A stretch of DNA of 64,000 bases from Candidatus Binatia bacterium (GTDB taxonomy: Bacteria; Desulfobacterota; Binatia; Bin18): the NCBI GenBank assembly GCA_963664395.2, contig OY761159.2, positions 4,352,001 to 4,416,000 of the forward strand. Reading direction: 5' to 3'. The notes under the pieces were generated by a model. That model was not told where the DNA came from, ran no database searches, and was given only the letters and a program-made list of their open reading frames with translations. Positions 41,425-47,898 of the stretch are shown in pieces. Position numbers and translations under genes: made by a program. Positions within the stretch are counted from its first letter, which is position 1. Each line of letters opens with the position of its first letter.

Positions 41425-42147
41425 TCACGACTGCGATAGCTCTACAGCTACACTTGCTTCGCCACCAGATTCAACGGTGACCTTTTGCATCGTTTCACCC
41501 AGAGTCTCATGCCATATCTTAAGCTCATACTCACCAACTGGAACGTCTGTCATGCTAAACGCGCCGGCCTCATCAGTTACGGCATAATATGGATGGTCCA
41601 TAACAATAATCCAGCCCTTCATCCAGCCATGAGTATCACACTCGACTCGAACGACCTCAGGCTTCTCAAATTTCTTTTTGAGCTTTTTCTTAAATTTGGG
41701 CTGGGCCTGGTTAAAAGCCGCGTTCGCTTCACTATAGGTGTGTATATTGTGCAGAATGCCGTCGTTATTCAGGATCTCCAGGTCTGCTCCTGCCTGAGTC
41801 AGGACGATATGCGGCGTATACACGCAGTCTTTTTGATCTAGGGCCATTGCATCGCCAAAATCTTTCCCACTGGAAATATTCGCAATGGAGACAACCGTAT
41901 TTTTTATTCCCTTGTTATCACCAACAACGAGACTTTCATCATACTTCTGCAGCTTGGCACAAACCTTTGCATCTTTGGTTGCTTCAATAGGCGCAGCTTC
42001 AGGAGCATCTCCAGCAAAAGTAATTGTCCCACTAATGCTACCACCATTGCTGACAGCGCCGACATCGTAACCAAGGGCGACAGAAGCCAAAGGCAGACTC
42101 GCTCCTACTATGAGGGCGATCAAAGTCTTTCCATTCATAATACGCAT
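41425..42147 (-). CDS. Exported cupredoxin-like / carboxypeptidase-regulatory-like domain protein
   Basis: Signal peptide; LDQKDCVYTPH, LHNIH, CDTHGWM, HPYYAVTD, WHE.LG. Confidence 0.85.
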   Translation of the reverse strand: MRIMNGKTLIALIVGASLPLASVALGYDVGAVSNGGSISGTITFAGDAPEAAPIEATKDAKVCAKLQKYDESLVVGDNKGIKNTVVSIANISSGKDFGDAMALDQKDCVYTPHIVLTQAGADLEILNNDGILHNIHTYSEANAAFNQAQPKFKKKLKKKFEKPEVVRVECDTHGWMKGWIIVMDHPYYAVTDEAGAFSMTDVPVGEYELKIWHETLGETMQKVTVESGGEASVAVELSQS

Positions 42148-42185: not shown

Positions 42186-44960
42186 TTACATATTTGTTTC
42201 GGCCGCTTCGGACTCTATTTCTTCGTCAGAAAGGGAGTTCAACTCTTCCATTCCAGCCACAGGATGAGCCGATTCATTGACTGCTGGACCTATCGTGCTC
42301 GCCCCTTTCCCGTTCACACCCGCAAACGGATTATCGATCCCGAGCAGCATGATGTAGTCACGCATGGCAAGGATTTGTTTGTCCTCGTCTCCGTCAAAGA
42401 TGTCGTCCGGGCCACCAGGGTAAAAAGTCGGCATATTCGTTCCTGGCATAAGTGCCTGTGGGTCTTTAATCCACTCAACGATCCAGTCCGGATTAAGCCG
42501 CTCTTTTGCCATACCGAGGTCAGGAGCCCAGCCGTCAGGCGGTCCTTCAGGCTTTTGATCGCCTTGTTGATGACAGGAGAAGCAGGAAAAATAATCGTTG
42601 GACATCAACATGTCACCAGCATGAACCATCTCAGGCGATGTTGCTGAGCGGTCAAAGTAGTTATATGGAATCTCCAGCTTACTTAACGCCTTGAAATAGT
42701 CGACTATACTGCTGGCCTCGTCATTTGCGAAATGAAAGGTCGGCATCCGCAGTTCTAACCATGGACGGATAGGAATAGGTTGCTTGAGAAAGCCATAGAA
42801 CCACTCAGGCTGCACTTTCTTCCCTTCGCCATTCAGGATGGGCGGAGCAAAGGAAGGATTGTCCAAATAGAGCGAGCGGATATCTCCACCGCCGCCTTCA
42901 ATAACGTGACAGCCCGTACAATTGTAGTACTGGACGAGACGCTGACCTTTGACAAGGTCTTCAGTCCAGTCACTGTGCGCAGTGTAGGCATGTGGCACAT
43001 GATGCCCTGTCCGACTCTTGAGAAAAACACGGACGGATAGAATATCCGCATCAGAGAGATTGAACCACGGCATGAGCTGTTCGATACGTTCCGTTGCATA
43101 GCCGCGTGGTGCATTGACCTTTTCATACGTCCAGTCGTTCCACGTATGCGGTACCTCGGTTCGATTCCCAAAGAAAAGTTCGGCAAGGCTTTTCTCCCCG
43201 AACGAAGTCAGCTCGACACCGATACGCGATTCTTTTTCCATCCCAGGAATGTCGTGGCAGCCGTGGCAGCCGTATTTTCTGACCAAGCCTGCTCCTTCGA
43301 GAACCAAGTCCGGGTCGTCCAGCTCGGCTCGAATGTCCGGGCGCTCCATCTCAGTCTTGAGCGTTAAGAGATAGGACACAATGGCCTGCGCTTCCTCATC
43401 ACTCAGACGCAAATCCGGCATGGCCGTATTCGGCGAGTAGCCACGAGGATTCTTAATCCAATGATACAACCAACGCGGGTTCGTTTTCTCCGCAACACGC
43501 GCTAAATTTGGCGCATGATTTTTGTTCTGCCCGACCATCGTGCCAGCCTGTTCCGCGTTGAATCCGTGGCAGGCTCGACACCCAAGGGAATTGACGAGGC
43601 GCTCGCCCTTTTGGACGAGTTCCGCATTATTCGGATCAATTCCTTCTGGCTCGGCATGGGATTCCAGCCAGGCTTGGCCTTCTTCCCTGCTCGCCTGTAG
43701 CAAATATGCCGTAACAGCTCGGCCTTGGCCTTCGTTGAAGAAAAAGTGGGGCATGCGCGTGTGCGGTCGAAATTCGTGCGGATTCGTGATCCATTCAACC
43801 ATCCAGGCCGGGTCGGATTTTACGGCGACGCGTCGTAGATAGGGACCTATTTTCTTCGCCTCACCATACCCCTCGACCACGTGACAGCCGGTACAGCCGA
43901 GTTGCATAAAGAGTTTTTCGCCACGGGCAATACTCTGACCAATCGAGTGTCTCGTTGCCACCGTCTGCATATCGGCGTGGCAGTTCAGACAATTCGCCTC
44001 AATTTTTGGGCCGAGCAGAAGCGGATGTTCCCAGAACTGCACATATCCATGCGCAATATCCACACTGCTAGTCGCAACCCCCTGACCGTTGTGACACGAG
44101 GTGCAGCCAAAGAGCTCAGGCGGGTGACTCCCCATCAGGAGATCAAATTGAGGGTGCGTTTTATGCGGATTGGGCTGATCTTCAAATCCACGTTTGTCTA
44201 TACCGACATGACAGGATTGACAGCGGTCAACGCGTGAGAGTGAGGTATCGAAATTACTCCGGTCGAACGCCGGTACGACGGCTTGGGTAATGGCTGGGAT
44301 ATTTGGAATGATGAGCCCCTTCACCGGCCGCATGACGTAATTATCGATACGTTGCGCCAGGAAATCCTTTTGTTCGTTCATTCCGCGTAGTGTTTCTCGT
44401 GCTTCAAGCACGCGCGCGTTGATTTCATTAATCTCATTTTCGATGCGGTCACGCTCAGATTGCTCGGTAAGAAAAAAATTTTCGAGTGCGACCGCGTCCG
44501 CTTCAAGCGCATCAAGATGAGCTTTCTCGTCTTTCGTCGAGTGTTCTAATTGGATCGCATGGTCATATTCATACCAGGCAGCCTCGATTTCACTCCGGAC
44601 GACGCGCAGGGCATTCTCCGCATCGTTGGTCCGAATATCCGCAGCGGCAAATACGGCCTGAAGAGAAGCCAGACGCTGGCCCCCCTCCCCGCCGGCGATG
44701 TCAATTTGCGCTGCTGCCAACGCGGCCAGCACTTCCTGATAGGCAGGGTCGGCAGCGAGGCGCTCGTCTTCGGCTTGGATCTCAGCCATCGTCTGGTTAT
44801 ACGCCAGCATCGAAAATTCAGCTTGGTATTTCTTCCATGGGCGCCGCGAAACGGCATCGTCCCAGACGGACCAGATCGATCCAATAAGCAGGAGTCCCAC
44901 TGCAAAGAGAAATACTCCGCTATACGATTTCTTTTCGTCGTCAACTTCTCTACGTGCCAT
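42186..44960 (-). CDS. Membrane-anchored octaheme cytochrome c with a coiled-coil stalk
   Basis: Eight CxxCH motifs (CQSCH, CTSCH, CLNCH, CTGCH, CRACH, CHGCH, CTGCH, CFSCH); N-terminal TM and long helical region. Confidence 0.95.
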   Translation of the reverse strand: MARREVDDEKKSYSGVFLFAVGLLLIGSIWSVWDDAVSRRPWKKYQAEFSMLAYNQTMAEIQAEDERLAADPAYQEVLAALAAAQIDIAGGEGGQRLASLQAVFAAADIRTNDAENALRVVRSEIEAAWYEYDHAIQLEHSTKDEKAHLDALEADAVALENFFLTEQSERDRIENEINEINARVLEARETLRGMNEQKDFLAQRIDNYVMRPVKGLIIPNIPAITQAVVPAFDRSNFDTSLSRVDRCQSCHVGIDKRGFEDQPNPHKTHPQFDLLMGSHPPELFGCTSCHNGQGVATSSVDIAHGYVQFWEHPLLLGPKIEANCLNCHADMQTVATRHSIGQSIARGEKLFMQLGCTGCHVVEGYGEAKKIGPYLRRVAVKSDPAWMVEWITNPHEFRPHTRMPHFFFNEGQGRAVTAYLLQASREEGQAWLESHAEPEGIDPNNAELVQKGERLVNSLGCRACHGFNAEQAGTMVGQNKNHAPNLARVAEKTNPRWLYHWIKNPRGYSPNTAMPDLRLSDEEAQAIVSYLLTLKTEMERPDIRAELDDPDLVLEGAGLVRKYGCHGCHDIPGMEKESRIGVELTSFGEKSLAELFFGNRTEVPHTWNDWTYEKVNAPRGYATERIEQLMPWFNLSDADILSVRVFLKSRTGHHVPHAYTAHSDWTEDLVKGQRLVQYYNCTGCHVIEGGGGDIRSLYLDNPSFAPPILNGEGKKVQPEWFYGFLKQPIPIRPWLELRMPTFHFANDEASSIVDYFKALSKLEIPYNYFDRSATSPEMVHAGDMLMSNDYFSCFSCHQQGDQKPEGPPDGWAPDLGMAKERLNPDWIVEWIKDPQALMPGTNMPTFYPGGPDDIFDGDEDKQILAMRDYIMLLGIDNPFAGVNGKGASTIGPAVNESAHPVAGMEELNSLSDEEIESEAAETNM

Positions 44961-44969
44961 AACAATCCA

Positions 44970-45056
44970 CTATGAGCCGGTTGCTCGCGTCTCAAGGAAG
45001 CGGCCGAGATAGAACACCACCACCCCAATCCCTAGTAGCCATAATTCTTTGCCCAT
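44970..45056 (-). CDS. Unannotated 28-aa single-TM peptide (MGKELWLLGIGVVVFYLGRFLETRATGS)
   Basis: ATG-TAG ORF in the operon orientation; purine-rich upstream; ends 9 bp before the octaheme start. Confidence 0.6.
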   Translation of the reverse strand: MGKELWLLGIGVVVFYLGRFLETRATGS

Positions 45057-45145
45057 GCTCTTTTCTTCAGTCAGACCAACAAGTAACGCGTATCCAACAT
45101 CGGCAATCCCGAATGCCTGAAGGCATTTCGCCAAGTAGAACGCCA

Positions 45146-45943
45146 TCAGACATTAATCCACGGCGTCACTAGAATATACTTCACATTCAGAATATGACGC
45201 AGCAGCATCTTAATGACCACGGCAATCATATTCAGCGTGAGAAATGACGTTAAGAAAAAACGGGCTGCGCCCCAGCGCTGCATGAATGCGCGTCCTTTGA
45301 GCCACACGACCCACCAATACATGGCAACCGTACCAAGCACAAAAAAACCGACAATGAGAGACAGTCCAAACGCAGCAGCCGTCCAGTAGTCCCGGATGCC
45401 AACCAAATAGGGCAAATCTTGGTTGGTCAAGGCCTCGACAAGGTGGGCATCCCACACTTCCCAGGGCCAAAACCAGTTCCAGCCAGGTCCTCTGACAAAT
45501 GTTCCAATAATAATGGTCGAAATCCATAATATATGGAAGCCAAAGATAAACGTCAGGATTTCATACTTGCGTTCCTTAAAGGTGTAATAGCCATTCCCCT
45601 TTGGATTAATATCAATAAAGGGAATAACCATCAGCCCCATAATGATAAAGCTGGGAGCCACAACTCCGGCGTGCCAGGGATCGAAGAAGACCAGGATTTC
45701 TTGCAGCCCAAGGAAATACCACGGTGCTTTGGAAGGGTTAGGCGTACTCCCAGGGTCAGCCGGCTCTTCGAGTGGAGCATCGACCAGGAGCGACCATAAT
45801 AACAGGAAGATAATCACAAAAAGGGTGCATAAGAATTCCGCTCGGACCAAATTTGGCCAGGTATGGACCTTATCGTCTCCGGGGCCGGTCGCTTTTTTGA
45901 GCGGGACTTCGACACGCGTGGCAGCTGAGCCCATTTCCGCCAT
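45146..45943 (-). CDS. Cytochrome b C-terminal subunit (subunit IV/PetD-like)
   Basis: TWPNL, PLEEPADPGSTPNPSKAPWYFLGLQE (APWY in place of PEWY). Confidence 0.9.
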   Translation of the reverse strand: MAEMGSAATRVEVPLKKATGPGDDKVHTWPNLVRAEFLCTLFVIIFLLLWSLLVDAPLEEPADPGSTPNPSKAPWYFLGLQEILVFFDPWHAGVVAPSFIIMGLMVIPFIDINPKGNGYYTFKERKYEILTFIFGFHILWISTIIIGTFVRGPGWNWFWPWEVWDAHLVEALTNQDLPYLVGIRDYWTAAAFGLSLIVGFFVLGTVAMYWWVVWLKGRAFMQRWGAARFFLTSFLTLNMIAVVIKMLLRHILNVKYILVTPWINV

Positions 45944-45957
45944 AACAACCCCCTTTT

Positions 45958-46053
45958 TTACTGGTCTTCAGAAGAAGACACTTTAGGCTTTGCTACCAGG
46001 TACAGCAGCCAGCACACGACCCCTATTAGAATAGGAATGACAAGCACGCGCAT
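45958..46053 (-). CDS. Unannotated 31-aa single-TM peptide (MRVLVIPILIGVVCWLLYLVAKPKVSSSEDQ)
   Basis: GAGG RBS 6 nt before ATG; fills the petB-petD gap almost exactly; hydrophobic helix followed by basic residues. Confidence 0.7.
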   Translation of the reverse strand: MRVLVIPILIGVVCWLLYLVAKPKVSSSEDQ

Positions 46054-46065
46054 AATATACCTCTG

Positions 46066-46839
46066 CTAGAGGGCTGGTCCTGAAAACCCATCACGCCGGA
46101 TACGCCAAAAATGAACCGCCAGAAACAAGCTGGTAACAAGCGGAATAAAGATACAATGGAGAATGTAAAAGCGGAGCAACGTATGGGCACCGATCTCACC
46201 ACCGCCAAAGAGAAAGGCACGCGCATCGTAAATAGGATTGACCCCCAGCACCTCAGCAAACGGCCCCTCGTTTCCAAGCAAGGGAGTTGCCCGCCCCATG
46301 TTTGACCCGACAGACACAGCCCAAATGGCGAGTTGATCCCACGGCAGCAGATAGCCTGTAAATGAGAGCAGCAAAGTCAACACTAAGAGAAGAACGCCCA
46401 CGACCCAATTGAACTCACGCGGTGGCTTATACGAGCCCGTCATGAAAACACGAAACATATGGAGCCACACGGCAATCACCATGCCGTGGGCGGCCCAACG
46501 ATGCATATTCCGCATCAGCATGCCAAACGGCATATCAAATTCAAGATACTTAATGTCGGCGTATGCATATTCCGCTACAGGACGGTAGTAAAACATGAGA
46601 TACACGCCGGTGACTACGGTGACCAGGTACATCAGAAAGGTGATGCCACCCATACACCAGGTGAAACGTAAACGCGTCGCATGCTTGCGGACTTTCGAGG
46701 GATGCAAATGGAGCCAGACATTGCCGGAAACCATTAATATCCGGTTGCGCGGCGTATCTTCGTAGCCGTGGCGAAAAATGGACTGCCAGACCTGCGACTC
46801 CATAACTTGACGTTTGAGTTCATCAAATTGGCTACTCAT
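46066..46839 (-). CDS. petB: Cytochrome b6-type N-terminal subunit
   Basis: WCMGG (heme ci Cys position), RNMHRWAAH, HMFRVF, TGYLLPWDQ, RFYILH..H. Confidence 0.92.
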   Translation of the reverse strand: MSSQFDELKRQVMESQVWQSIFRHGYEDTPRNRILMVSGNVWLHLHPSKVRKHATRLRFTWCMGGITFLMYLVTVVTGVYLMFYYRPVAEYAYADIKYLEFDMPFGMLMRNMHRWAAHGMVIAVWLHMFRVFMTGSYKPPREFNWVVGVLLLVLTLLLSFTGYLLPWDQLAIWAVSVGSNMGRATPLLGNEGPFAEVLGVNPIYDARAFLFGGGEIGAHTLLRFYILHCIFIPLVTSLFLAVHFWRIRRDGFSGPAL

Positions 46840-46877
46840 ACTATTTCCTTGCCTTTACGTCGCCCTTCTACTCACCG

Positions 46878-47480
46878 CTAAATACGTAAAATACTGTCTG
46901 GATGTTGTTTGTTCGGATCAACCCCAGGCTGCATCTTAAAGATTTTGCTCTTATCAACTAGGAGTTGTCCGTCATCGGCCAGCGACAGCTTAAATCGATC
47001 CATTGGACGTGGAGCTGGGCCTTCGAAATTATAGCCCGTGCGATAGTAGCCACTCCCATGACAGGGACATTTATATTTACTCTCAGTCGCTGACCAAAGC
47101 GGCGTACACCCCAAGTGGGTACATTTTGCAAAGATGGCGTAGAATCCCTGTGGTTCTCGGACGATCCAGGTACGCTGATCTGAGCGGTATTTCTCACTCA
47201 CCTCGCCAACAGGATAATCACCTGGAAAGCCAGCCTTAAAGGTCAACGGCGGAACGAAAAGAACGCGAGGGAAGGCAGAACGGACAAAGGCGAGCAGACT
47301 CACGAGAGAAACCAGACCGAAGCCGCCCCAGCTGAGGCGGCCGAAGAAATCACGCCGTGACCACAGGCCCCCTCTTTGAGCACGTTCACGGAGTCGTTTC
47401 TCACGCTCGGCCCGTTGCTCAACGCGACGGCGCTCTTCGTACTCTTGGATTTCTTCAGGAGAGGTTGGTTTTTTTGCCAT
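46878..47480 (-). CDS. petC: Rieske 2Fe-2S protein
   Basis: SRRDFF Tat-like motif, CTHLGC, CPCHGS, GPAPRP. Confidence 0.93.
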   Translation of the reverse strand: MAKKPTSPEEIQEYEERRRVEQRAEREKRLRERAQRGGLWSRRDFFGRLSWGGFGLVSLVSLLAFVRSAFPRVLFVPPLTFKAGFPGDYPVGEVSEKYRSDQRTWIVREPQGFYAIFAKCTHLGCTPLWSATESKYKCPCHGSGYYRTGYNFEGPAPRPMDRFKLSLADDGQLLVDKSKIFKMQPGVDPNKQHPDSILRI

Positions 47481-47538: not shown

Positions 47539-47898
47539 TTATTTTCTTCGGAACATGAGAGCTAACCAGCCCCCTACCCCCATCACAACAGCCAAAAACA
47601 ACATCACCAGTCCTACTGGGGCAAAGAGTGGAAGTAGAATAATACCAATAAGAAGAAATGGAATACTCAAAGCGACTGGACTGAAGGGAGAAGACGGCTC
47701 GGCCTGATCTTCCCCTACAGGCTCTTCCGTTCGTGTTGTTTCCGTTCCGCCCTGCAGCAGGCTTACTGCGTAGTCGCGTAATTCTTCACGCCCGTCAGTC
47801 CCAGCTTCGTTGATTAAGCGAGACAACTCCTCAGTCAGGGCCTCGATTTTATTTTCGACATCCTGACTAGGCACTGATTTGTGCGCTTTTTCTGCCAC
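47539..47898 (-). CDS. Hypothetical membrane protein (two C-terminal TM helices)
   Basis: Acidic helical N-terminus plus hydrophobic hairpin; directly upstream of the Rieske gene. Confidence 0.7.
   Translation of the reverse strand: MAEKAHKSVPSQDVENKIEALTEELSRLINEAGTDGREELRDYAVSLLQGGTETTRTEEPVGEDQAEPSSPFSPVALSIPFLLIGIILLPLFAPVGLVMLFLAVVMGVGGWLALMFRRK

Follow-up and report, generated by a model that had tools for sequence, protein, structure and literature searches.

Two small membrane-protein genes packed into the cytochrome b6-type operon of Binatia encode candidate accessory subunits

Small single-span subunits are encoded within the operons of several respiratory complexes, as is the case for CydX of cytochrome bd and CcoQ of the cbb3 oxidase. 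Such subunits are often lineage restricted and overlooked or unnamed in annotation, and their status as subunits has been shown biochemically. In the cytochrome b6f complex, the passages of PMC7908018 that deal with the small subunits describe four single-helix proteins of about 3 to 4 kDa, PetG, PetL, PetM, and PetN, as a "picket fence" that is called unique and as late additions to a conserved core, with functions that are still undefined. An operon encoding a Rieske protein, a split cytochrome b6 and subunit IV, and an "atypical octaheme cytochrome c" has been reported for Nitrospina gracilis, "Candidatus Kuenenia stuttgartiensis," and "Candidatus Methylomirabilis oxyfera" (PMC3578206), and the section of that paper describing the operon type includes no small genes. 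Complexes with a split cytochrome b and an octaheme cytochrome c are found across many phyla of environmental importance; none has ever been purified, and their subunit lists come from annotation alone. A genome survey of the Binatota describes an electron transport chain with alternative complex III, and neither "Rieske" nor "cytochrome b" occurs in its main text (PMC8262859). No literature pairing "Binatia" with "Rieske" was found, and Binatota went unmentioned among the matches listed for Binatota, "cytochrome b6," and Rieske.

The window analyzed here, a stretch of 64,000 nucleotides from a "Candidatus Binatia bacterium" genome (contig OY761159.2, positions 4,352,001 to 4,416,000), contains an operon with the same four core genes, adjacent, co-oriented, and in the same order, as the Nitrospina-Kuenenia-Methylomirabilis type. 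On the minus strand the order is Rieske, cytochrome b6, s31, subunit IV, s58, and cytochrome c, where s31 and s58 are the names given here to a 31-aa and a 58-aa gene. The Rieske iron-sulfur subunit (200 aa; 47480 to 46878; Pfam Rieske, 6.9e-09) is followed by a PetB-like cytochrome b6 (257 aa; 46839 to 46066; Pfam Cytochrome_B, 3.1e-41), which matches the NCBIfam cytochrome b6 model PRK03735 at 3.6e-59, under the curated cutoff. The PetD-like subunit IV (45943 to 45146; Pfam Cytochrom_B_C, 7.3e-07) is long, with 265 aa and five predicted helices, and is 52 to 58% identical to the subunit IV of Nitrospinota loci. Its nearest solved relative is the subunit IV of cyanobacterial or plant b6f (E value, 4.3e-07), and no structure of its own clade was found among solved-structure sequences. 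The last core gene encodes a membrane-anchored octaheme cytochrome c of 924 aa (44960 to 42186; Pfam Cytochrom_C, 2.3e-34) with eight CXXCH motifs and one N-terminal anchor helix.

The best NCBIfam matches of three of these proteins are to ExtP, ExtQ, and ExtS of the selenite/tellurite reduction operon (NF040969, NF040970, and NF040971), with E values of 1e-79 for cytochrome b6, 6.5e-14 for subunit IV, and 6.7e-22 for part of the cytochrome c. An assignment of the operon as an Ext equivalog was rejected, because all three scores fall under the curated cutoffs (267 versus 290, 52 versus 150, and 78 versus 100, respectively).

The gap between the cytochrome b6 and subunit IV genes (petB and petD) is filled by s31 (MRVLVIPILIGVVCWLLYLVAKPKVSSSEDQ; 46053 to 45958, minus strand). 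A Shine-Dalgarno-like GAGG (46060 to 46063, minus strand) lies 6 nt 5' of its ATG, and the product is one hydrophobic helix followed by the basic residues KPK, all exactly as a sequence-only reading of the window had described them. The same reading had placed a second single-helix protein of 28 aa at 45056 to 44970, ahead of the octaheme gene. This had to be corrected: the ATG at 45056 lies inside a larger frame, as codon 31 of a membrane-protein gene of 58 aa (s58; 45146 to 44970, minus strand), so that the 28-aa ORF is its C-terminal half, and the whole protein is predicted to form a two-helix hairpin. The true frame of s58 opens at the ATG at 45146, which shares its A with the TGA stop of subunit IV (TGATG, 45144 to 45148, minus strand), a translational-coupling arrangement. 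Spacing is tight throughout, with 12 nt between petB and s31, 14 nt between s31 and petD, the 1-nt overlap of petD and s58, and 9 nt between s58 and the cytochrome c gene. The wider claim, that two co-oriented small membrane-protein genes are packed into this operon, is borne out, and both genes prove genuine and conserved. That they are "hidden" holds in that they are unnamed or labeled "hypothetical protein"; it fails in that the exact sequences of both are already present in public predicted-protein collections. What they lack is annotation, not detection. For neither protein did Pfam or NCBIfam give a match at an E value of ≤0.01, neither profile found a relative among solved-structure sequences (b6f included), and in the ESM Atlas only unnamed hypothetical clusters were returned for s31 (0.80) and s58 (0.92).

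The coding status of the two genes was assessed in 38 loci, comprising the subunit IV loci of 37 related genomes and the window's own, in which the small ORFs were located by tblastn (E value, ≤0.01) and ORF tracing. The s31 frame is intact in 30/38 loci, namely, all 24 from the window's genus plus 6 of the 14 outside it, and the s58 frame in all 24 genus loci and 11 of the 14 others (35/38 overall); no frame-breaking change was seen in either gene across the 24 genus loci. The three loci without s58 (L036 to L038) have a divergent subunit IV (43 to 52% identity). Pooled over the genus loci, dN/dS (Nei-Gojobori) is 0.150 for s31, with off-frames at 1.18 and 2.76, and 0.101 for s58, with off-frames at 1.33 and 2.17, in line with the ratio below 1 that the sequence-only reading had put forward as a check. 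Reference values for the same genus are 0.038 for petD and 0.010 for petB. Variable columns are dominated by the third codon position in both genes (14/8/28 for s31 and 28/15/53 for s58 at positions 1/2/3 in the 24 genus loci), and across families the amino acid identity of both remains at 40 to 60% while the DNA diverges. A GAGG or GGAGG upstream of s31 is retained in most of the 24 genus loci.

Given the intact frames, the low dN/dS, the off-frames above 1, and the third-position variation, s31 and s58 are, by every sequence criterion applied here, protein coding and under purifying selection, and both are almost certainly real genes. It is highly improbable that they are instead noncoding, that is, chance spacer ORFs conserved for RNA-level or translational-coupling reasons. 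Such an explanation would suit two very short ORFs located exactly at intergenic positions; it does not account for dN/dS values of 0.10 to 0.15 beside off-frames above 1, for the concentration of variation at third codon positions, or for protein identity that persists between families despite DNA divergence. Moreover, s58 stays intact in the 15 of 24 genus loci in which a spacer of 24 to 57 nt is present, and in genus g15 s31 is built into a longer protein. RNA libraries of two studies contain this stretch, with contigs that bridge petB-s31-petD (X1 record 2, 45349 to 46900; X5 record 9, 45774 to 46350) and petD-s58-cytochrome c (X1 record 1, 44900 to 45378; X6 record 12, 44900 to 45185). 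These contigs hint that s31 and s58 are transcribed; they could be carried-over DNA, could derive from several transcripts, and are silent on translation. Two RNA libraries of one study hold contigs of 915 to 917 nt at a depth of 368 to 540 that share just 31 nt (45709 to 45739) with the window, a stretch belonging to the PWYFLGLQE region, which is highly conserved in subunit IV; their presumable source is a relative that another organism expresses strongly.

Within the Binatia, s31 occurs in three forms. In the window's genus and several families it has 26 to 31 aa, one helix, and a start of MRVL. In other Binatia it has 45 to 65 aa and is lengthened either by a further helix at the N terminus (...LVLLGITxVIPGG-RVLVLP...) or by an amphipathic stretch. 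The g15 version, with two helices, has no stop and runs in frame into the GPGDDKVHTWP start of subunit IV. Residues M1, R2, V3, P7, A21, and P23 are invariant in the family alignment. The fusion was present in all four g15 genomes that were read (L030, L119, L120, and L121); in a fifth, G491, the s31 and subunit IV matches share one open frame of 366 aa. An AF2 model of the L030 fusion, made with no alignment, had a mean pLDDT of 49.2, too low to judge helix packing. A seeming fusion of s31 with cytochrome b6 in L042 to L044 proved to be an off-frame artifact.

For s58, the first 30 residues, which the 28-aa reading frame left out, are conserved throughout the class, with F3, K7, Q10, G13, G18, and G24 invariant in the family alignment; dN/dS in the 24 genus loci is 0.087 for the N-terminal half versus 0.121 for the C-terminal half. 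An AF2 model with the family alignment confidently predicts a two-helix hairpin (mean pLDDT, 90.5; helices at residues 2 to 26 and 31 to 56). A Foldseek search of this model against the PDB gave nothing at an E value of ≤0.001; the top row, with an E value of 1.3, came from a small chain in the bcc-aa3 supercomplex of Corynebacterium and carries no significance for a hairpin so generic. When 1.84 billion representative proteins were searched with the s58 profile, 277 relatives were recovered at an E value of ≤0.001, nearly all of 44 to 90 aa. One longer match, P0189 (132 aa), carries an s58-like hairpin (E value, 4.5e-07) C-terminal to an unrelated part of about 75 aa and may be a different family architecture or an over-extended gene call. 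Among the long open frames and long profile matches no true s58 fusion was found: apparent fusions with subunit IV (open frames of 307 to 417 aa) reflect an off-frame that by chance has no stop, and P0089 (292 aa) is a frameshifted petD running into the s58 frame.

Taken as found in the searches made here, s31 and s58 are confined to the class Binatia and are additions to a wider operon type. A scan of named genome records with the subunit IV alignment returned 80 loci, 15 of them of the Binatia type (L039 to L053) and 65 from other phyla (Nitrospinota, Poribacteria, Acidobacteriota, Bacteroidota, Planctomycetota, Methylomirabilota, and others); the best of these loci is L039, at 95% identity. 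In HMM searches of six-frame translations, s58 was detected in 15/15 and s31 in 10/15 of the Binatia-type loci, and neither was detected in any of the 65 others (0/65 each). In those 65 loci the cytochrome c gene lies directly 3' of subunit IV, and a hydrophobic small ORF was found in neither gap, unlike in the Binatia operon with its two added genes. The published operon description, which is free of small genes in the section cited above, fits their absence from the Nitrospinota loci. Hence, the suggestion that such small proteins might be a general feature of b6-type complexes of nonphototrophs is contradicted. In the comparison of orthologous gaps that the sequence-only reading had proposed as its test, frames are intact in all 24 genus loci, the 65 loci of other phyla have no hydrophobic small ORF there, and several Binatia families have no s31. 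In Acidobacteriota loci (L087 to L115) the petB-petD gap is 200 to 350 nt long and repeatedly contains an ORF ending in a shared peptide of the form LWTGDNFGRFxRxxTTCRSWA. This ORF lacks hydrophobic character and has no relation to s31; either it is itself a conserved element, or subunit IV has a conserved N-terminal extension there of which the ORF is an off-frame.

Genome tallies agree with this distribution. A search of 301 genomes from the phylum detected s58 in 7 of the 10 belonging to the class and in none of the 291 others. Among 251 Binatia genomes, including two flagged as unpublished (G486 and G513) on which no particular statement here depends, s58 was found in 170, always as a single match and in 19 of 20 families; a subunit IV of this type was found in 174, with per-family tallies nearly the same as those of s58; and s31 was found in 97. 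The best 40 s31 matches each have an s58 match on the same contig and strand, 808 to 934 nt downstream, a distance that corresponds to the subunit IV gene lying between them. Four families that keep the operon have no s31 (f4, 0/19; f5, 0/13; f107, 0/15; and f108, 0/5), and the petB-petD gap is just 7 to 55 nt in some loci. Because it is absent from several Binatia families that retain the operon, s31 is dispensable, and since both genes are absent from the 65 operons of the same type in other phyla, core function requires neither.

We consider it probable that s31 and s58 are stoichiometric accessory subunits of the mature quinol-oxidizing complex, a proposal drawn from gene content and arrangement. 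Both are conserved, co-oriented, and co-occurring with the catalytic genes, as operon-encoded small accessory subunits are. For s31 the indirect support is good, the best evidence being that genus g15 has it fused in frame with subunit IV; for s58, which is probably a subunit on weaker grounds, the support comes from strict synteny and co-occurrence with subunit IV and from the conserved stop/start overlap, which was present in 9 of the 24 genus loci and, for the distant family f107, in 7 of the 8 loci that were read. The earlier suggestion of undescribed subunits stands in these respects and changes in others: the second protein has 58 aa and two predicted helices, and neither protein is homologous to a Pet subunit. 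The resemblance to CydX and CcoQ lies in size and arrangement, since both membrane proteins are very short and their genes are co-oriented with the catalytic genes and closely spaced; the sequences are unrelated, the host complex is different, and s31 and s58 are known here from sequence.

In the model we propose, the class Binatia would have added s31 and s58 to the widespread operon of Rieske, cytochrome b6, long subunit IV, and octaheme cytochrome c. The single helix of s31 would sit against subunit IV on the N-terminal side of the latter, and the basic C terminus of s31 would be cytoplasmic; synthesis of the s58 hairpin would be coupled to that of subunit IV by the overlapping stop and start. 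In b6f the N terminus of subunit IV faces the n-side. Because s31 is fused to this terminus in g15, we infer by analogy that its KPK end is cytoplasmic. The role of both proteins would be structural or assembly stabilizing, like that of other small subunits of respiratory and photosynthetic complexes, and not catalytic. Translation in the host, presence in the mature complex, topology, and role are all inferred for both proteins. Complex prediction from the cytochrome b6, subunit IV, s31, and s58 alignments, with s58 as the partner, gave a score of 0.00 twice, which speaks neither for nor against binding.

A less likely explanation, though one to be taken seriously, is that s31 and s58 are assembly factors, insertion chaperones, or regulators that are not stoichiometrically retained in the mature complex; they could, for example, take part in heme or cofactor insertion or in the docking of the octaheme cytochrome or a partner oxidase. 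The operon-level evidence fits this explanation as well as it fits subunits, and the dispensability of s31 in several Binatia families and the absence of both genes from the same operon type elsewhere are in its favor. Against it stand the g15 fusion, which makes s31 a permanent part of a core subunit there, and the stop/start overlap of s58 and subunit IV, which suggests that s58 is produced together with a structural subunit.

The original comparison was with PetG, PetL, PetM, and PetN. Like these, s31 and s58 are small hydrophobic peptides tied to the genes of a cytochrome b6 and subunit IV core, and the s31 of the window, with 31 aa and one hydrophobic stretch, fits the layout of one helix and roughly 30 to 40 residues; s58, with 58 aa and two predicted helices, does not, and neither do the two-helix s31 forms of 45 to 65 aa in other Binatia. 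Common ancestry with the b6f small subunits, through extreme divergence, would be suggested by the b6-type core with its split cytochrome b and by the size and one-helix layout of s31, which are as described for b6f in the cited passages of PMC7908018, yet it is extremely improbable: the Pfam models of the Pet small subunits were matched by none of 25 s31 and none of 32 s58 members at an E value of ≤10, neither profile is related to solved-structure sequences with b6f included, s58 is predicted to have two helices, and the occurrence in one class, with absence from the same operon elsewhere, argues for a late, local origin. The setting also differs from that of b6f, since the host is a noncyanobacterial member of the Binatia, an octaheme cytochrome c replaces cytochrome f, and the s31 and s58 genes lie inside the core operon. 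A bolder version of the subunit proposal, which we regard as rather unlikely, is that the Binatia independently built a small peripheral helix lattice on a b6-type core, a convergent counterpart of the b6f "picket fence" made up of s31, s58, and perhaps a 119-aa protein encoded upstream. At its boldest, and by analogy with what has been proposed for PetG/L/M/N, these helices might bind pigment or lipid on the surface of the complex or serve to dock a partner complex. The genome survey reports that the Binatota carry genes for the biosynthesis of carotenoids and chlorophyll (PMC8262859).

If s31 and s58 are subunits, the probable parts list of the Binatia complex gains two protein families that match nothing in Pfam or NCBIfam, and the parts list varies between lineages that have a common core. 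The two are new small-protein families and a modest addition to the familiar theme of small operon-encoded subunits. The natural series of s31 (separate with one helix, separate with two helices, fused to subunit IV, and absent) offers a guide for structural and expression work and illustrates the gain, trimming, and fusion of accessory helices.

Several features of the surrounding DNA were also observed. In 15 of the 24 genus species the spacer of 24 to 57 nt that parts petD from s58 carries its own GGAGG, and the ORF is still intact. In most of these species the spacer is an element of about 50 nt ending in TAGGAGGACACGTTTACTCTTT (L004 to L017; oriented positions about 2298 to 2353); a second copy lies between s58 and the cytochrome c gene in L004, L006, and L010, where it alters the last four residues of s58, and no copy was found within the window. 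It resembles a small intergenic element that duplicates and supplies a ribosome-binding site of its own. Upstream, between the seryl-tRNA synthetase and Rieske genes, is the gene for the 119-aa membrane protein (47539 to 47898, minus strand). The N-terminal half of this protein is acidic, its C-terminal part is strongly hydrophobic, and it matches nothing in Pfam or NCBIfam. A tblastn match to it lies just 5' of the Rieske gene in 13 of the 15 Binatia-type loci, and the operon or the complex may thus have this protein as an additional member. Downstream, 3' of the octaheme gene, a 240-aa ORF (41425 to 42147, minus strand) encodes a signal-anchor-like N terminus and a CarboxypepD_reg-like C-terminal domain (Pfam), and its translation, read by eye, contains a type-1-copper-like ligand pattern, HNIH ... 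CDTHGWM.
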